This document shows positions 3,425-62,996 of a DNA stretch of 64,000 nucleotides, piece by piece. Below the pieces are notes generated by a model. It was not told the origin of the DNA and did no database searches. It was given only the letters and a program-made list of their open reading frames with translations. Made by a program: the position numbers and the translations under genes. The number at the start of each line of letters is the position of its first letter. The stretch's first letter is position 1. The stretch is from Spizellomyces punctatus DAOM BR117 (Eukaryota): assembly GCA_000182565.2 (NCBI GenBank), contig KQ257462.1, one strand, 5' to 3'.

Positions 3425-4225
3425 GCTTGATGCCAAAAACACAACGCCTTATCGTCCTAACCAAATGCCAGCAAACTAAAGCAAGACGAGAAGGATAAAA
3501 ATGACTCAAAATACTGGAATTAAAAAAACAGAAACCCGTTTAAAAACTTAAACTTCTCAGCGTCCCTTCCTTCCTTACAAATCTCAACTTCCGAATCCGC
3601 ACCCTTAGTGTCACTGTGCCACTAATGATTTTGAAATATATCCATATATGGTGATCATGTCGGCTTAGAAGCTTTCAAATCCAATTCTGCGCCATTTGGC
3701 TATGGGGATTAGGCTTTTCACCAAACTGCTCGAGGATCTGACGACAAGGCGCATGGATGAAAAGTTGGGATTTCCTGCATTGAGCAAGAAGAGGAAATGC
3801 CATGTGCAATTGCCGTTGAATATAGAAGACGGAGTTAGTATCTGTGGAAGCAAAAGACGATTTGGGTTTTGGATGTTAGGTTGCCAGCCGGTATCCACCA
3901 TACACCAACGACGAGTTGAGGTTTTCCACTTTCTCTGTCAAACGTACATGCTGGCAGTGGAACTCTACATGGTTTCCACCTAAGCGCAATGCATCGACTT
4001 TTTGTAGTGGAAAGCTATTCATGCCCCAAGACCTTGTTTGGCGTGCCTCTGGATAGCTTTCCGATCACCTTCGAAATCCCTGATGCCTGCAGGATTCGTA
4101 AATGCCAGATGAGGCGCACAGGTCTAATAAAGGCAACCAGCGTCCCGAATGCCATGTTGCCTGAAATTCAGAAGGATCATGACAGTAACCCACAGGTCCA
4201 ACTTGGAGGACTGATGCCTGCCTCA

Positions 4226-5016
4226 TAGTGTGGAGGTGATTGAAAATGGCACTAAGACCCATTATTATCCGGATAATCCGGTTAATCATATCGCATAATC
4301 AGCACCCCCATCTATCGCTCGAAGCGGTGAGGCATGCTAATGTAATGTTCTCCAAACTGCGGTGTGGCATGAATGTAATGTTTTTTTTTCTTTTTCAAAC
4401 TGTGATGAGGCGCATGCTGAAGGTCTATAAAAGGGGGACTTTTCCCTCTTTCCTCTTTATCCATCCTCGACTCGCAAGCATCTGCCCAACGCTCATCGCG
4501 ACCCATTGCAACCTCATAGCGACCCACACAACCTCATCGCGACTCGGTCAACCATGAGAACGCTGATGTGGTGGTGTCGAGGACCTCGACCGCCCGACAG
4601 CAACAGTGATCAGAACCAGCGGCAACCAATCGGATCCGATAACAAAACCTACTATTATGCTGCCACATTAGTTGAGCTTGGTTGGTATGTACCAATGGCA
4701 TCATCTCTTTTCATGTTATTCTGTCACTAACATGCATGTATAGTCTCCAAGTCTTGTCACTGAACATCCTCTGGCTTGTGACGCTGCCCAGTCGATTCGC
4801 TCCTGGATGCAAAGTCTGGCTTCAATGCCATCAAGAGTTCCAGATCAAGGCCTAGTAGGGACCGCGTGTGGTGGTGGGCAATTATCCGGTTAGAACAACC
4901 GTTACGTATTGCGTGTATAATTGCCTATTAGTAGTTAGTTAACTTTTCCGAACCGGTTGTCGCCGGTTTATTCCCTGGTGTAGTAGCTAGTGCCAGTTTC
5001 TGTCACCTCTCCACTA
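4226..5016 (+). mobile_element. Non-autonomous Fanzor-associated TIR element ('ghost' locus / MITE), copy 1
   Basis: ~30-bp imperfect TIRs (TAGTGTGGAGGTGATTGAAAATGGCACTA ... TAGTGCCAGTTTCTGTCACCTCTCCACTA), TA at both ends, CATA at 4224-4227. Both ends are shared with the copy at 11507-11720. Confidence 0.85.
4490..4545 (+). repeat. Three imperfect ~19-20-bp tandem repeats (CTCATCGCGACCCA-type) inside element copy 1
   Basis: gctcatcgcgacccattgcaa/cctcatagcgacccacacaa/cctcatcgcgactc. Confidence 0.7.
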
Positions 5017-5031
5017 AAAAGGCCTAAATAA
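4943..5031 (+). ncRNA. Putative Fanzor omegaRNA (scaffold 4943-5016 plus flank-derived guide ~5017-5031, AAAAGGCCTAAATAA)
   Basis: CTTTTCCGAACCGGTTGTCGCCGGTTTATTCCCTGGTG..GCTAGTGCC..CACTA closely resembles the SpuFz1 omegaRNA scaffold as I recall it. Hairpin AACCGG-TTGTCG-CCGGTT; internal TAGTG complementary to terminal CACTA. Confidence 0.75.
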
Positions 5032-5181
5032 TCGATGCTGCATGCATGTGTTACTCATTAGATACAAAAAAGGCTTAATGAGAATCACATGATTTCTATA
5101 GCAACCAGCGGAAATTGAAAGGTGAACAGATGCAAGACCGTCGCCGAGCAGGTCGGCGTTTGACCTTACAAAACTAGAAAG

Positions 5182-6303
5182 ATGCATAGCTTTGTGGGCC
5201 GGGCACGACAGACGGTGTTGCGGCAAGGCTCAGCAGTGACTGGAACTGTCATAGCTACAAGACGCGGTATGGATTTTGCTGTTGATGGTTGTTTGTTTTT
5301 ATAGCGTTCTCAAAGACGAAACACAGCCCAAGTTCTTCTTTGCGTAAACAATGTCGCCAAATCCACGTTTTTCCACACCCATTTCCCCCAGCGTACCTCC
5401 GCAACTTCCGAAGAATCCCTCGATATTCCTCCAGGCGTCACACCCACCTTTCACAACGCATACAACTCCCTGAACGATGCACTCAACTGGTCGAAAACTA
5501 CTCCAGCAAGCCTCCGTCTTCTTTCCTACAATATCAAAACTTCCGCTGACGCTCAGCTGTTTCAAACTGCACTAAAGAGATGGCGTAAAGCGCGGCAACC
5601 ACAAAATCGCACGGATAATGCCTTGTTTTTGGACATTCTATTCAAAATTGGGGCGTATGAGACGATTTTGGAGATGCTTTGTGATCGGCCTGGATATAGG
5701 GTTTTACCTGATTTCCAGCATATCAGCGAGCTGATGGCTGGCTTCAGGAATGTGGCTGTGAAAGGAGAAGGCAGTGAGGAGGAGGTGATCGCGGTCTTGG
5801 ACAATGTGTACAAGACTTTTGCCTTATTTCTGTACTACAGTATTCCTCCGACGGCTGAGATCTACTCGGCGGTCATCACTTCTGGTGTGTATTGCGGGTT
5901 ACCAGAGGGATGGAGAAGGTCCGAGGTGACTGCCAAGGAACAGATTTCCCTTGGACTACCTTTCGAGAAGGAGGCGGTGTACGCCCTAGCTCACGGATAC
6001 ATCCTCAGTGGGGATTTTGACGGTGCGCTGACAATTCTCAAACACCTTGGCGGGGCGGATACGATTGGGCTGTTCTTTCAATTTCATTCTCTCGCATCAA
6101 AAGGCGACATACAGGGAGCCATTCAAGTCTTGGAAAAGCTAGCGGCAGCGGATCAGGTCAATGTGGCAAATGTTGTCGGGTCAGCACACTGGAAATCGCT
6201 GAACGAGGTCGTGGAAGCATTACTCCCACAGTTGAGCGAAGTGGAAAAGAAGACCGTGCTGGCGTTGGCGGAGAATGCTAACGTAAAGTTATCATCTGCA
6301 TAA
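5182..6303 (+). CDS. Hypothetical helical-repeat (PPR/TPR-like) protein, probably mitochondrial
   Basis: Short exon MHSFVGRARQTVLRQGSAV.. (Arg-rich, presequence-like), intron GTATGG..CCCCAG (~5266-5391), then a long open exon to TAA at 6303 with a helical-repeat pattern (ALAHGYILSGDFDGALTIL; SKGDIQGAIQVLEKL). Confidence 0.55.
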
Positions 6304-11085: not shown

Positions 11086-11491
11086 CTTCACAATTGTAAA
11101 ATTGCCCAAACCAAAGATAAGATCGTGACTCAACCCGATGGAAGGAACAAGGTGTCTACTTGGGCGAGAATGTGAAAATCGGTTGCGATTGCCTGGGACA
11201 CATCACGCATGCAAACAATGTGTTCGTGGGAAGATGGGCATGTGCTGCCTTAATCGACGCGTGTGCAATTTGGTGAAAGATAAAGTTTCTAGAAGCGATG
11301 GTGAGGTTGTGTTTGAAAATGCGAACGCTTCTCTTCAAACGTGACGCTATAGCGCAAAGGCCCGCAATGGGCCAAAATGGTGGCAGGTAAAAACAGTGTT
11401 TTCGGAGGAATGCTCTACGATAGTGCGGCTGGCAAAAGGCAACGTGACGGTCGGATTCGAACCCCGACCCCCATTTTTCATTCTCCGATGA

Positions 11492-11582
11492 ATTTTAGAT
11501 GTTCTTTAGTGTATTAGAGTGACAGAAAATGGCACTAGCTACTACACCAGGGAATAAGCCGGCGACAACCGGTTCGGAAAAG
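11492..11582 (-). ncRNA. Putative Fanzor omegaRNA, copy 2 (guide AAGAACATCTAAAAT from flank)
   Basis: CTTTTCCGAACCGGTTGTCGCCGGCTTATTCCCTGGTGTAGTAGCTAGTGCCATTTTCTGTCACTCTAATACACTA on the minus strand. Confidence 0.72.
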
Positions 11583-11720
11583 CCAAGTAATTCCCTCCTT
11601 ACAACCAACTACCACTAGGCCCAATTACACATGCAATACATTACGGATTATGCGATATGATTAACCGGATTATCCGGATAATAATGGGTCTTAGTGCCAT
11701 TTTCAATCACCTCCACACTA
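11507..11720 (-). mobile_element. Fanzor-associated ghost MITE, copy 2 (internally deleted, ~214 bp)
   Basis: Reverse complement of copy 1 ends: ~75 bp left end essentially identical, CATA at 11722-11719, right end with omegaRNA-like scaffold ending CACTA at 11507. Confidence 0.85.
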
Positions 11721-21981: not shown

Positions 21982-22527
21982 ATGGGGGCTGAATTCTTTT
22001 TTTTTTTCTGTTGGAGTCTTTTTCTTTTTTTGTTCTTGGTTTTGTAGATATCTCTTTTTGCTTTGCTTTTTGTTTGCTTTTTTCTAGGGTTTGTTTTTCT
22101 TTTGGATACCAGAGGGTGGATAGTTTCAAACGCGGATGTCCCTCACACACTGTCGTGTTCTTTGCTTTTAGATTTAAGATAGTTGGCCACCAGTTGGATA
22201 AAACGCTGGTGATTATGGAACGAGTAGTAAGAGACTTGATGTGTAGCAGTAGCGTATATCATCTCTTTTTTTCGTGAACATTGCCTTTACACTTTTTCTT
22301 CAACCAACTGGTTTTTGGTCAGTCAGTCTTTCCGAGTGGTACTAAAGGGCTCAACAAGTTTTTGACTTGAAGTACATTATCAGAATGTCAGAACTCGGTA
22401 AAGTGAACACCAAAGACAGAAAGTTTCTGCAAAAGTTCAGCGGTTCTGCCACAGTGAGCCATGGATAAAGTTGGGGAATAGTCGCAATTATGAAAATAAA
22501 AAAAAACGGACGAGACCAATATGGGAG

Positions 22528-22611
22528 TCCGGCTTCCCAGAGTCGAACTGGGGACCCTTAGATTCCTGAGCAATTACAGTCTAATGCTACTACCAACTGA
22601 GCTAAAGCCGG
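22528..22611 (-). tRNA. tRNA-Tyr(GUA) with ~10-nt intron
   Basis: CCGGCTT/AAGCCGG acceptor stem (C1:G72, A73), TAGCTCAGTTGG A-box, TTAGA-CT-GTA-A-[intron]-ATCTAA anticodon arm, GTTCGACTC T-loop, downstream T-run terminator at 22506-22498. Confidence 0.93.
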
Positions 22612-52465: not shown

Positions 52466-53304
52466 TTAATAAAAGGATACTGTATGGAGAACCTGCGCAT
52501 TGGTTCGCGCGGCAAAATCATCCAGAATCATGTCCATTTCCGCGTCTCGGTCCTTGGATTGTGCTATCATGTTCACTAGTTGCAGTATCAGCTGGCCGCC
52601 AACTGCAGCTTCTTCATGATTATCTTTGATCTCGATGTTCACCAGGTGTACTGGGCGATTCAGCTCTGACGGTCGGTTGTCCAGATCTGTGAGTCTCGTA
52701 TCAGAACGCTGCTCCTCGATAGGGCTGAACATCACATATTGTCTAGTCCGTATCCATACATACCCTCGCATGCAGAATCGAAACATCGTTCCTCACAAGA
52801 TATTATTACATCGAAAACGTCCCGAGCTTCCTGGAACCTTTCCGGCGCGCGCTTTATTCTTCTATTTCTGTCTAACATTGGCAAGAGACCGTTCGCTTTG
52901 TAACTTGAAGGATAGATAGTGGAAGTCAGATTGCCAGCCGTCAAGCGGTGTAAGCAATGGGACTTACAGTTGCGGATCTTTCTTCAGCAAGTCGTTGAAG
53001 ATGTCGTTATAGGGAACCCCGAAAGGATATATATTGGGCTTATCAGCAGCGGGCCCAGGAAGCCGCACAGCACTTCCAGTTCCATATGATGAGAGTACGT
53101 ATCCGGCTTTCCTGTGGACAGAGCGTGCTGATGTTGAGTCAGTTTTCTCCAAGTGATAAATGCCACATTGGCCCCAAATTCCAGGACATACTGCAGTACG
53201 TTATGCGCCTCCATACTCCGATTTTGATTGCTGGCACATATTACCGCTAGCCGAAAGGTTTGCTGCTGTGGAGGCGCTGGTCCTTGTGGTCCTTGAGATG
53301 CCAT
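52466..53304 (-). CDS. SSU72: RNA polymerase II CTD phosphatase Ssu72
   Basis: VICASNQNRSMEAH catalytic motif, SYGTGSAVRLPGP, FDVIISCEERCFD, NIEIKDNHEEAAVGG. Confidence 0.95.
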
Positions 53305-53432
53305 TTGTTCAGAAGGATGGAATAGAACTGGCAAGTCACCGAACCATATCCGTATTGGCTGCGCCACAAAGGTCCTGGGATATATTCGATCTTGGGCGAG
53401 ATCTCACCCTTGGTCGACCTTCTGATTTCGCC

Positions 53433-55485
53433 ATGTCTACTCAGAGACGTAACGCAGAGAATTCAAAATGCTTCCAGCTCTTTGCGCTGCCGAGCGACAT
53501 TCTAGCGTCTGTTACTGAAAATACCCAAGTGGTGGAAGGTCTGCCCGGCATCTCGACTCTACCTTCAGTCGCGAAGCCCGAACAACCTTGCATCCAGCCA
53601 ACTTCCACCTCCGGATGCAGTACCTGCGGTGGACTTCAGTTTCCGTCTTCAGAAGAGATGCGAACACATTACAAGAGTGACTGGCATCGGTATAATATCA
53701 AAAGAAAGGTTCGCGGCCAAGGGCCAGTGTCTGAGGAGCAGTTTGACGATCTTACCGAAGTAAGCAGTATCGAAGCCAGTGATGAAGAGGATGACGAAGA
53801 GGATAGACCCACACATCCCGACATGATTAAGGCGGGTTCTATGCCAGACTCTCCGTTTGTCATGCTGCCGCTCGGGAATGAGGAATGCCTTCTTGTTTAT
53901 AAACAAATCTTCTCATCCTCAAAACGTGACATGAAACGAACTGACAACGCTGCTTTGATTGTTGAACGCCTGCGAAAGTACCAAAGCTTACAGCAGCCCA
54001 CCCATTGGACTCTCCTTATGTTGGCCGCCGGACATTTTGCTGGGACTGTAGTCAATTGTAAAGATGGAACCGCCATCGTCCACAAGACATTTCATCGATA
54101 TACCACACGAAGAAAGCAGGGCGGTGCTCAAAGCAGGTGCTTACATTTCTTGCGACTCCATGGGGATTCTCAGTTAACATTGGTTCCGATATAGCAACGA
54201 CCAAGCGAAGGGGAAAGCAAATTCAGCAGGTGCAGGTCTGAGACGGTACAACGAACAAGCCCTTCAGGTACCAGTTCTACTCTACGCATATTGTGACTAC
54301 TAGTAAAATAGTAATGAAATCCGGCATGACACGATTTATTTGCGGTTTTAGAAAGAAATTCGCGATCTACTAGTGGAATGGAAAGATTATTTGTCGACAA
54401 GTGATCTAATCTTCATCCGTGCGCCAGCTGCCAGCAGGAAAGTTCTTTTCTTTGACGGTGGGCCACTGGACGCAGGGCATGACCGCATTCGCTCCTTTCC
54501 CTTCACCACTCGTCGACCCACGTTCTCTGAATTGATGAGATGCTTCAAGGAGCTTACTACGATACGAATTGAACGGCTTCCGGAGATACCTGATGTACAC
54601 GCAACATCCCAAAGCGAAGCACTGCGGCCAAAACCACGCCCAAAGCCAGTATCGCCGGAGGCTGTCAAAGACAACGAGACGACGGCTGGCATCGATCCAC
54701 TCTTCTTGAAGCTTGCCGATTTTTGCAAGCGAGGGAAGCTAGAGCTATTTCAGTCTCACCTAAAAGCGAATGAAGGCTTGAACGTGAAAACACGCTTGCC
54801 CGACGAGGCCGGGACTAGTCTTTTACATTTAGCGGCTACGAATGGCTGCTCCGAAATGGTAAACGCCCTTCTCTCCTTGGGTGCTGATCCTACTATGGGC
54901 AGTGAAAAGCGAAATTTAAAGCCCTACGATGTAGCTCAGAGCAAAGATACGCGTGATGCTTTCCGTCGCTTTGTTGCCTCCCAACCTGATATGTGGGACT
55001 GGAAGCAGGCGCATGTCCCGGGTCCTCTCACTCCAGAGATGGAGCAACAGCAAAAGGAGAAAGAGAAAGAGAAGAAGAAGAAAATGAAAGACAAACAAAA
55101 AGCCTACAAATCTTCTAAAGAGGCGGCAACTCCCGTTCCGGAGCCGGTCCTTGTTCCTGCTCCATCGTCAAAGAAAACGGCTCTGTCAAAACTTACCAAA
55201 TCAGAGAGAGAATCCATTGGGATGACAGCCGAACGCCGAGCAAGGTTGGACAGGGAGAAACGAGCTTTGGCTGCAGAAGCTCGCATAAGAGTGATGCAAA
55301 ATCAGTGTGGAGCGTGCGGCAAGTCTTTGGTGGGGATCACACCTTTTGAAAAGCTGCAATTTCGGTATTGCTCCATGCCGTGTGTTACGGTATGCGTCAT
55401 GAAATTAGAAGATATGTTCTGTCGATGAAATCACATAATCATCATTCGTCTCCATTGCCAGAAACATCAAATCTTGACGTCGTAG
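53433..55485 (+). CDS. VMS1: Vms1/ANKZF1 (C2H2 zinc finger, VLRF1, ankyrin, C-terminal Cys motif)
   Basis: HYKSDWHRYNIKRK, AAGHFAG, HKTFHRYTTRRKQGGAQS, SAGAGLRRYNE, FPFTTRRPT, ankyrin LLHLAA, CGACG..FRYCSMPC. Confidence 0.93.
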
Positions 55486-62244: not shown

Positions 62245-62775
62245 TAATCAGCGGATTAATCCGGCTTAACCATGTTATAATGTGCATTGTTTTTGGTCAT
62301 CATCATCATGAAGATAAACAATAAAGTCAATTATTTACAATTATTGCCTTTGCGACAGCTGAGGTCTGGGACCTTATCCTGCGGCGCTTATTTTCTATAT
62401 ATGGCCCCATTCTCACTATCTCCTCCCTTCTTGCTCTTTTACCCCCAACTCACCGCAAGCAAGTCAAGCATGACCGAGGACCTCGCCCTCCCGACAATAA
62501 CAATGGGCAAGGATTGCCTTGCAATGCTATCACTACTATGCTGCTGTGATCACAGGTATGTCTTTGTAACATGCTTATTGTCTGTCGAATTCTGGTTTAC
62601 TAATATCAGAACATCCTCTGAACCCAGTAGGCCTCGGAACCTGGCCTAAAAGGATTTCTCGTGATGGTGGGCGCTAGTTACCCGGATAGACCACTCGTAA
62701 TGTGCATGTGTGAGCCTAGTTCATACTTAGTTCGGGTTGGTTGTCGCCAGACCCCAGTGGTTCGAATCCGCATTG
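62245..62775 (+). mobile_element. Diverged relative (copy 3) of the Fanzor ghost element, lacking recognisable TIRs
   Basis: Collinear blocks shared with 4265-4970: CGGAT(T)AATCCGG, TATA, CGCAAGCA, CGAGGACCTCG..CCCGACA, ACTA(C/T)TATGCTGC, GTATGT intron, GAACATCCTCTG, GGCCTA, TGGTGGGC..CCGG, GGTTGTCGCC hairpin. Confidence 0.7.
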
Positions 62776-62996
62776 GTGTACTGTATTGTTGTTTTAACTG
62801 CTCATTGCCATACTACCACAAAGAAACGGTATTATGCGATAAGCACAAGAATCGTGGTATGTCTGCGACCACAGGAGTTGTTGCACGCATGATAGGTCAC
62901 AAAGATTTATTTATACTCTCCCCTCACATCTCACAGGATAACTACATACAATCCGCCTCGGGAGCAGTTGAGCAGAAGCCAGCGAATTCCAAACCA

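Follow-up and report, generated by a model that had tools for sequence, protein, structure and literature searches.

A probable ghost copy of the Spu-1 transposon in Spizellomyces punctatus DAOM BR117, with a Fanzor1 guide-RNA end

Results

Architecture of the Element

An element of 791 bp lies at positions 4226-5016 of the window (the whole 64,000-nucleotide stretch of DNA that was analyzed) and is bounded by a 29-nt imperfect inverted repeat (Table 1). The arms of the repeat are complementary at 24/29 positions (83%); when positions 4000-5300 were subjected to 200 dinucleotide-preserving shuffles, the best 29-mer had at most 22 complementary positions, and 0/200 shuffles reached 24. This bears out the imperfect terminal inverted repeats (TIRs) of about 30 bp that an earlier, sequence-only reading of the DNA had described. 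That reading had also placed TA at both ends and CATA at the left end, as we find: TA occupies 4226-4227 and 5015-5016, and CATA occupies 4224-4227. TA likewise ends a second copy of the element (copy 2), and CA stands before the left inverted repeat in both copies (4224-4225 and 11722-11721). The subterminal palindrome and the ATTATCCGGTTA units are possibly transposase-binding sites, and a motif related to the palindrome occurs at the left of a diverged relic (62250-62275).

We found no nuclease ORF inside the element, in which the longest stop-to-stop frame is 105 aa, in agreement with the earlier observation that no RuvC-like ORF is visible. None of the 16 ORFs of at least 250 aa in the window matched a TnpB or Fanzor Pfam family, and no Fz locus lies within the window.

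Table 1. Coordinates of the element at 4226-5016 and of related features in the window
Feature	Position	Strand	Remarks
Conserved CA	4224-4225	+	Immediately outside left inverted repeat; with the next TA reads CATA, the SpuFz1 TAM
Left inverted repeat	4226-4254	+	29 nt, TA at start; exact recurrence at 11692-11720 (-)
Subterminal palindrome with ATCCGG	4261-4289	+	Third ATTATCCGGTTA unit at 4881-4892
TATAAAAG box, then CT-rich leader	4426-4433	+	Putative promoter of internal transcription unit
Exon 1 part of SPPG_09412 ORF	4554-4684	+	43 codons + 2 nt; 100% identity to NCBI protein
Spliceosomal intron	4685-4743	+	59 nt; GTATGT ... CACTAAC ... TAG
Exon 2 part of SPPG_09412 ORF	4744-4855	+	Stop TAG 4853-4855; frame not conserved between copies
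omegaRNA scaffold	4942-5016	+	75 nt; two stems and 6-nt linker
Scaffold stem-loop 1	4950-4969	+	Includes AACCGG-TTGTCG-CCGGTT, 4951-4968
Scaffold linker ATTCCC	4970-4975	+	6 nt, scaffold positions 29-34
Scaffold stem 2	4976-5016	+	Closed by TGGTG/CACTA
Right inverted repeat	4988-5016	+	29 nt, TA at end; forms last part of scaffold
Putative guide AAAAGGCCTAAATAA	5017-5031	+	15 nt from flank; position set by published 75-nt scaffold and 14-15-nt guide
Copy 2, miniature ghost	11507-11720 (11722 with CA)	-	214 bp and CA; deletion copy
Copy 2 putative guide	11506-11492	-	Flank beyond scaffold
Diverged ghost-like relic	62250-62815	+	Approximate ends; same order of parts
Relic putative intron	62556-62609	+	Between conserved block and stem-loop 1 equivalent
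Relic stem-loop 1 equivalent	62734-62754	+	Loop kept

Copies and Family

The view that this is a repeated element, and not a chance palindrome, is upheld by the exact recurrence of the left arm (0 expected), by the second copy, and by contigs from other insertion sites. Copy 2 retains the left 77 nt (100% identity) and the right ~135 nt, including the scaffold (11582-11507), and is without the promoter and intron region; its 3' block is 93% identical to that of 4226-5016, and the distance between its repeats is ~155 nt, compared with 733 nt in 4226-5016. No inverted repeat was found in the diverged relic at ~62250-62815, which carries a TATATAT box (62396-62402) and a CT-rich leader at the matching place. 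In its stem 1, 3/8 pairs are changed on both sides (compensatory), and the loop is kept. Of the 10-mer at the core of stem 1, 0.08 occurrences would be expected in the window; there are three, all at the three elements. The GGTTCGAATCC motifs that adjoin copy 2 and lie inside the relic were considered as tRNA, and neither ARAGORN nor Rfam identified a tRNA there.

For the wider family we used assembled contigs from four public runs (X1, X9, X10, and X11), which cannot show RNA starts, ends, or strand; stretches that lacked contig cover (4880-5055 in X11; 5056-5300 and 4192-4219 in X9) were not used as evidence. Two X1 contigs span both junctions of 4226-5016 with 0 differences. The element stretch was matched by 184 contigs in X1 and 377 in X9, and the summed contig depth in X1 was 2.3-3.5 in the flanks versus 7.5-569 in the element bins, values that are not copy numbers but show much-repeated words. 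In contigs of other insertions, alignment begins at 4224 in X10 and X11 and, in one X1 contig, only at 4226, and an X10 contig of another copy aligned up to 5016, with unlike sequence beyond. No contig joint across the whole element, as expected of an empty-site allele, was present in the four runs, which is not evidence of its absence; the TA at both ends is a putative target duplication.

Relative to the family majority, copy 4226-5016 has A for G at 4942, one G fewer behind 4812, and extra tandem repeats, and family contigs skip 45-81 nt where it carries these internal tandem repeats. The sequence just upstream of 4943 also differs from that of the majority, and the similarity of the family copies breaks at 4943. 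Given these departures, copy 4226-5016 may be decaying.

A Spliced Transcript from the Interior

The spliced CDS (4554-4684 joined to 4744-4855) translates exactly to SPPG_09412, an 80-aa NCBI gene model, and the source genome thus agrees with DAOM BR117. Splicing of the family's internal transcript is seen in a 276-nt contig from the RNA library X11, in which 4513-4683 is joined to 4743-4840 (GT..AG, cut +1); additional joints or loose ends that show the joined form occur in runs X9 and X10. X11, the only run labelled as RNA that yielded a spliced contig, lacks contigs across 4880-5055, so that nothing links the spliced transcript to the scaffold. Judged by its letters and position, the TATAAAAG box upstream would act as the promoter of this unit. 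Run X9 is labelled 'DNA?' and yet has intron-skipping joints, which could reflect either cDNA or intron-less DNA copies.

Structure of the 3' Scaffold

The minimum-energy fold of 4942-5016 has a free energy of -20.2 kcal/mol (z -3.08), and 0/200 shuffles fold as well. The hairpin noticed in the sequence-only reading forms part of stem 1, which in this fold is an 8-bp stem with a 4-nt loop. The same reading had proposed that an internal TAGTG (4988-4992) pairs with the terminal CACTA, and here it did not stand: forcing this pairing raised the energy to -12.9 kcal/mol, a cost of 7.3 kcal/mol, whereas pairing of CACTA with TGGTG (4976-4980) gave -18.7 kcal/mol, a cost of 1.5 kcal/mol relative to the free fold. 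The TGGTG/CACTA pairing also closes stem 2 when copy 2 is folded without constraint, and it agrees with the U35...A75 stem 2 given in the structural description of Saito et al. (2023; PMC10432273). By these folding energies, the terminal CACTA is predicted to pair better with TGGTG than with TAGTG.

The scaffold was also compared with the published Spu-1 omegaRNA, a comparison that the earlier reading had named as a check on its proposal. Of the 18 scaffold nucleotides named in that paper, 15 matched with one 1-nt indel allowed, a test that is weak alone, as a control place matched 16/18; the misfits, G22, C40, and G70, fall in the 3' strand of stem 1 and in distal stem 2. When the whole window was scanned for the named nucleotides, the ghost copies scored 15 and 14, the top score was 16/18 at 62511 (-), and the next best was 13. 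We rejected the match at 62511 (-) as an omegaRNA, since the base of stem 2 is missing there (U35-A75 only) and its end does not resemble the inverted repeat. It sits antisense within the exon-1 block of the relic.

Searches with general models and patterns returned nothing related. Across the whole window, no Rfam 15 family reached its gathering score, and at E<=1 the matches over the three elements were at chance level. A metagenome scan with the stem-loop-1 pattern returned at least 120 loci, and those listed shared only 19-22 nt with the element, as expected by chance; four short stretches of the scaffold led to one unrelated paper in the full-text literature.

The Locus Fits the Published Description of Ghost Spu-1 Loci

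The passages of Saito et al. (2023; PMC10432273) on Spu-1 report 134 'ghost Spu-1' loci without an ORF in the S. punctatus genome, with 30-nt inverted repeats (IRs), a conserved CA before the 5' IR, and a conserved interior of 'around 550 nt'. The genome encodes SpuFz1, for which the same passages give a 5'-CATA TAM and a 75-nt scaffold that spans the 3' IR and is followed by a 14-15-nt guide from the flank; Fanzor1 omegaRNAs are 88-90 nt and reach 14-15 nt past the IR. The CATA TAM, the omegaRNA over the 3' TIR, the flank guide, and the existence of ghost loci had all been stated in the sequence-only reading, and these statements agree with that text. Every listed feature of ghost Spu-1 that could be tested is present at 4226-5016, and the source genome is the same, which supports the identification of a Fanzor ghost locus made from the letters.

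We conclude, with a probability of about 0.85 for the explanation as a whole, that 4226-5016 is a ghost copy of the Spu-1 transposon of S. punctatus DAOM BR117 that carries a Fanzor1 guide-RNA end: a non-autonomous, TA-flanked TIR transposon, inserted between CA and TA, that lacks the Fanzor1 gene and whose last 75 nt form a Fanzor1 omegaRNA scaffold. As it fits the ghost Spu-1 description published in 2023 from the same genome, the locus belongs to a class that is already known.

Discussion

As a discovery the locus has little weight, since ghost Spu-1 loci were counted and tested in 2023 and were mined again in 2026 in the same genome. It does illustrate that a Fanzor guide locus can be recognized from sequence alone, without tools.

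How such a locus might work can be proposed in outline. An internal Pol II unit, with the TATA box at 4426, the leader, and the 59-nt intron that is spliced out but without a conserved ORF, would be transcribed toward the right end. The 3' part of the transcript would be matured to an RNA of ~90 nt that consists of the scaffold and the 15-nt flank guide (AAAAGGCCUAAAUAA), and this RNA would be bound by SpuFz1 made from one of the Fz loci of the genome. The complex would cut only where CATA directly precedes AAAAGGCCTAAATAA, which is the empty, element-free version of the same site, and repair from the occupied copy would restore the element, resulting in maintenance or homing. At the occupied locus, the guide match is directly preceded by ACTA, not CATA, because of which the element itself would be safe from cutting; in the assays described by Saito et al. 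(2023; PMC10432273), SpuFz1 cleavage was lost with every single mutation of the TAM. Among the guide matches with at most 3 mismatches within the window, no other one is preceded by CATA. We infer that a guide may be expressed from 4226-5016 and would home to CATA followed by AAAAGGCC, and that an omegaRNA would be processed from this copy; a homing or maintenance role for ghosts is itself a proposal that already appears in the Discussion of that paper (PMC10432273).

The 'ghost' passages of PMC10432273 and PMC13434818 contain no mention of a promoter, intron, or gene models on ghosts. No protein is conserved across interior copies. The interior may instead be transcribed as a unit that supplies the omegaRNA. 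We put forward, at somewhat less than even odds, that it is no leftover filler and would be a dedicated Pol II 'guide gene', with a TATA box, a CT-rich leader, and a spliced 59-nt intron; the omegaRNA would lie at the 3' end of its spliced non-coding transcript, to be trimmed by SpuFz1 encoded elsewhere. That a diverged relic lacking inverted repeats keeps these parts in the same order speaks for selection on the transcription unit itself. A spliced interior transcript could explain how a nuclease-less element produces a guide RNA in natural Fanzor biology, and genome annotation would then have mistaken the spliced ghost transcript for the small proteins SPPG_09412 and SPPG_08830.

The converse, that a small protein (the 80-aa SPPG_09412) is the real cargo and the 3' structure its UTR, strikes us as very improbable. 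It draws on the NCBI models themselves, a spliced one here and the 105-aa SPPG_08830 in another copy, on the removal of the intron in RNA-library contigs, and on a family variant that, read from the letters, has an in-frame 15-nt version of the first codons where this copy has 18 nt. Against it, the two models read the exon 2 stretch in different frames and are alike only over their first ~44 residues, the extra G behind 4812 in most family contigs shifts the frame relative to copy 4226-5016, and the relic's ATG is, with respect to the conserved block, in a different frame. Among 5.8 billion proteins, only these two S. punctatus models matched, neither with a Pfam domain on record, and the exon-1 peptide, the part searched against the PDB, gave 0 matches at E<=10.

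An improbable but less remote alternative accepts descent from a ghost and takes the copy to be inert now: an ordinary TA-flanked miniature TIR transposon of the Tc1/mariner-like kind, with the 3' block kept only as a binding site for an unknown transposase, no working omegaRNA, and no role in Fanzor targeting. TA ends and TIRs suit a cut-and-paste element, and SPu-1 was described with 33-bp TIRs and putative TA duplications (Bao and Jurka, 2013; PMC3627910). At 4942 and 4812, copy 4226-5016 does not follow the family majority, and it has internal tandem duplications; copy 2 is wholly without the internal promoter region, and RNA ends could not be seen in the contigs. On the other side, 75-nt ghost omegaRNAs from four loci supported SpuFz1 editing in human cells, with indels comparable to those obtained with the extended canonical scaffold (PMC10432273, in its passages on ghosts), and representatives of 126 unique ghost scaffolds of 74-76 nt catalogued in 2026 were later tested and also supported editing (PMC13434818, likewise). 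The scaffold at 4942-5016 still has its two stems, linker, and terminal pairing, and the compensatory changes in stem 1 of the relic suggest that base pairing in the RNA, and not just a DNA site, has been under selection.

Compared with the ghost Spu-1 loci in the relevant passages of PMC10432273 and PMC13434818, the element shows no difference in kind: the genome, the IRs of ~30 nt, the upstream CA, the missing Fz ORF, the two-stem 75-nt scaffold, and the flank guide are the same, and only the 733 nt between its IRs depart from the 'around 550 nt' reported, an excess due to the internal tandem repeats. Full Spu-1/SpuFz1 loci are about 2.1 kb and carry one Fanzor1 ORF of 633-638 aa (PMC3627910; Saito et al., 2023), and the passages on ghosts in PMC10432273 note that seven positions differ between ghost IRs and Fz-locus IRs, that ghost stem 2 also differs, and that no Spu-1 transposase is known. 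With the full loci, as far as those passages describe them, the element shares TA-flanked TIRs, the CATA left junction, the right-end scaffold, and the 15/18 named nucleotides; it differs in having no nuclease gene and an unlike interior that contains a TATA box and an intron of its own.

The element also resembles Tc1/mariner-type MITEs (Stowaway-like) in being short and non-coding, with TIRs, TA ends, many copies, and internally deleted forms, of which the 214-bp copy 2 is an example. Unlike these, it has no known related transposase and carries an RNA module whose partner nuclease is encoded elsewhere. In bacteria, PATE-like elements, ORF-less IS200/IS605 derivatives, are reported by Meers et al. 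(2023) to retain the TnpB omegaRNA. They too lack a nuclease, keep the guide-RNA end with a flank guide, have a TAM equal to the left-junction motif, and allow only the empty site to be cut. They reportedly move by prokaryotic ssDNA 'peel and paste' without TIRs or target duplications, whereas the element at 4226-5016 is eukaryotic and has TIRs, TA ends, and a spliced transcript.

Identity and Limits of the Element

The ghost Spu-1 class in the S. punctatus genome is already published. The available text of Saito et al. (2023; PMC10432273) describes 42 loci encoding the Fanzor1 nuclease (Fz) and 134 "ghost Spu-1" loci without an Fz ORF, in which about 550 nt of conserved sequence lies between 30-nt inverted repeats (IRs) that differ from those of Fz loci at seven positions, with CA conserved upstream of the 5′ IR. 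It further describes an omegaRNA comprising a 75-nt scaffold across the 3′ IR and a 14–15-nt guide derived from the flank, a 5′-CATA target-adjacent motif (TAM) in which every single mutation abolishes cleavage, and 75-nt ghost omegaRNAs from four loci that were functional with SpuFz1 in human cells; according to its Discussion, no transposase has been found for Spu-1. These passages bear out what the sequence-only reading stated about the TAM, the omegaRNA, the guide, and ORF-less loci. A 2026 study, in its available text, lists 126 unique ghost scaffolds of 74–76 nt from the same genome and tests of representatives (PMC13434818), and an earlier description of SPu-1 assigned it TIRs of 33 bp and putative duplications of TA (Bao and Jurka, 2013; PMC3627910).

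The two IR arms of our 791-bp element are complementary at 24 of 29 positions (83%), and the best 29-mer in 200 dinucleotide-preserving shuffles of region 4000–5300 reached at most 22, which upholds the imperfect TIRs of about 30 bp proposed earlier. CA directly precedes the element and, with the initial TA, makes the left junction CATA, as had been noted together with the TA at either end. Contigs from four public sequencing runs (X1, X9, X10, and X11, an RNA-seq library) were aligned on the same region. In X1, single contigs cross the left junction (4000–4236) and the right junction (4981–5300) with no differences. Contigs from other insertions start at 4224 (X10, X11) or 4226 (X1), and one X10 contig matches as far as 5016 and then continues into unlike sequence; the element boundaries placed by the sequence-only reading therefore hold.

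No frame within the element exceeds 105 aa, in agreement with the proposed lack of a nuclease ORF. The 16 window ORFs of at least 250 aa contain ordinary fungal domains (protein kinase; class I tRNA synthetase; MDM31/32; C2CD3-like; Vms1-like bVLRF1/VATC/ankyrin), and none belongs to a TnpB/Fanzor or transposase family, so the nuclease must be supplied in trans by another part of the genome.

Features of the element, its second copy, and the diverged relic
Feature	Position	Strand	Details
Left IR arm	4226–4254		29 nt, begins TA
Tandem repeats	4322–4411 and 4488–4548	+	two units of 35–43 nt; three units of 20–21 nt
TATA-type box	4426–4433	+	TATAAAAG
CT-rich leader, then ATG	ATG at 4554	+	
Intron	4685–4743	+	59 nt; GTATGT, CACTAAC branch site, TAG
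Stem 1	4950–4969		8 bp, 4-nt loop; predicted fold
Linker ATTCCC	between stem 1 and second stem		6 nt; published "A29 to C34"
Right IR arm	4988–5016		29 nt, ends TA
Copy 2	11720–11507	−	214 bp; blastn of element against window
Relic left subterminal motif		+	CGGAT(T)AATCCGG; from sequence
Relic TATA box	62396–62402	+	
Relic block	62475–62496	+	CGAGGACCTCGNCCNCCCGACA; 2 occurrences in window, 0 expected
Relic putative intron	62556–62609	+	GTATGT...CAG
Relic stem-loop 1 equivalent	62734–62754	+	same loop, compensatory changes

The Element Belongs to a Repeat Family

An exact repeat of the left arm at 11692–11720 (−), with 0 expected by chance in the window, marks a miniature ghost copy (copy 2). 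It matches the element at 100% identity over its first 77 nt and at 93% over the scaffold block; like the element, it has CA in front and TA at both limits, and a different flank occupies the putative guide position. The number of contigs aligning on 4000–5300 was 184 for X1 and 377 for X9. Summed X1 depth, which is not copy number, was 2.3–3.5 in the flanks and 7.5–569 in element bins and indicates only that the element's words are highly repeated. The element is a repeated mobile element. In contrast to the published region of about 550 nt, 733 nt separate its IRs, and the surplus comes from the two tandem repeats; other family contigs omit 45–81 nt there, so the length of the interior differs from copy to copy.

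Scaffold Fold and Putative Guide

The last 75 nt (4942–5016) fold into two stems at −20.2 kcal/mol (z = −3.08), a stability equaled by none of 200 shuffles, and stem 1 bears out the hairpin seen earlier in the 3′-terminal block. The suggested pairing of TAGTG with the terminal CACTA fared much worse: when forced, TAGTG (4988–4992) gave −12.9 kcal/mol versus −18.7 kcal/mol for TGGTG (4976–4980), whose pairing with CACTA also closes stem 2 when copy 2 is folded freely.

We compared the element with 18 scaffold nucleotides named by position in the available text of PMC10432273 (U5, C6, C7, U16–G20, G22, A29, C32, C34, U35, G37, C40, G70, A72, and A75). With one 1-nt indel allowed, 15 of the 18 fit, the 5′ set from 4943 and the 3′ set from 4942; the misfits (G22, C40, and G70) lie in regions where ghost and canonical scaffolds reportedly differ. 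As a control, both strands of the entire 64-kb window were scanned. Copy 2 scored 14/18 and the bulk of the window at most 13/18, and the top score (16/18) fell at 62435–62511 (−), antisense within the exon-1 block of the relic. This site has neither stem 2 nor an IR and was taken as a chance match; it cautions against tests by position alone. Because an unrelated place scores 16/18, the fit is supporting evidence only, and the ghost Spu-1 identity, which our results support, rests on genome identity and the full architectural match. A full-text literature search with four scaffold stretches returned nothing relevant (published sequences sit in figures and supplements).

Given the scaffold end at 5016, the putative guide is 5017–5031, AAAAGGCCTAAATAA. 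At the occupied locus its match is preceded by ACTA; at the empty site, the four bases ahead of it would be CA-TA, producing CATA followed by the target. Elsewhere in the window, no match (up to 3 mismatches) to the guide of the element or of copy 2 is preceded by CATA. TnpB elements follow the TAM-based targeting logic proposed here for the ghost element, the empty site being cut while the occupied site is spared. We propose that Fz1, encoded elsewhere in the genome, would bind the element's putative guide RNA in trans and home to the empty site. Under the strict TAM requirement only that site would be cleavable, and the same homing logic is proposed in the Discussion of Saito et al. (PMC10432273, available text).

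The Family Interior Is Transcribed and Spliced

A 276-nt X11 contig fuses 4513–4683 directly to 4743–4840 (GT..AG, cut +1), and the same intron-skipped form occurs in X9 and X10 as a joint or as loose ends. The joined contig from an RNA library indicates that the family interior is transcribed and spliced. X9 is labelled "DNA?", and has intron-skipping joints and no contig on the right flank, which means either that this run is cDNA or that some DNA copies of the element lack the intron.

The 43-aa translation of 4554–4682 is 100% identical to NCBI SPPG_09412 ("uncharacterized protein", S. punctatus DAOM BR117), and a scripted splice of 4554–4684 and 4744–4855 translates exactly to this 80-aa protein, which identifies the genome as the one in which Fanzor1 was characterized. 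The gene model (4554–4855, +) lies entirely within the ghost element. Among 5.8 billion sequences, the only proteins found were SPPG_09412 itself and its paralogue SPPG_08830 (105 aa), which have about 44 N-terminal residues in common and then read exon 2 in different frames. An additional G follows 4812 in most contigs of the family, and the ATG of the relic is in another frame relative to the conserved block. The protein-coding reading is weak; both gene models resemble ORFs called on a transposon transcript that is spliced but non-coding, which the genome annotation takes for small proteins. We read the interior as a putative non-coding Pol II unit that may supply the omegaRNA; no contig in X1, X9, X10, or X11 joins the spliced part to the scaffold. 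Only the suggestion that ghost elements harbour such a non-coding unit, TATA-driven and spliced, is possibly new here.

A Diverged Relic and Other Features of the Window

The 62.5-kb match of the named-nucleotide scan led to a diverged, ghost-like relic at about 62250–62815 (+). It keeps the element's order of parts, and a search for an IR around it found none. Relative to the two ghost copies, 3 of 8 stem 1 pairs are altered on both sides with pairing kept, and the stem-loop core GGTTGTCGCC occurs three times in the window, at the three elements only (0.08 expected). These compensatory changes and this recurrence lend modest but real support to selection on the RNA stem. The relic may belong to an older subfamily, or it may be a copy that became fixed and lost its mobility.

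A tRNA T-arm-like motif, GGTTCGAATCC, flanked by a 5-bp stem, lies at 11445–11470 (−), about 40 nt past the right end of copy 2, and the same 11-mer lies within the relic at 62759–62770 (+), between stem-loop 1 and TGGTGTA; neither ARAGORN nor Rfam called a tRNA at either motif. Rfam called no tRNA at gathering score in the whole 64-kb window, and an 85-nt ARAGORN "tRNA-???" with a four-letter anticodon (gtaa) at 22527–22611 (−) is probably either spurious or a tRNA that contains an intron. Two neighbouring long ORFs at 53160–55428 (+) make up one Vms1/ANKZF1-like protein, with bVLRF1 divided between them, ankyrin repeats, and VATC, and are presumably a single intron-bearing gene.
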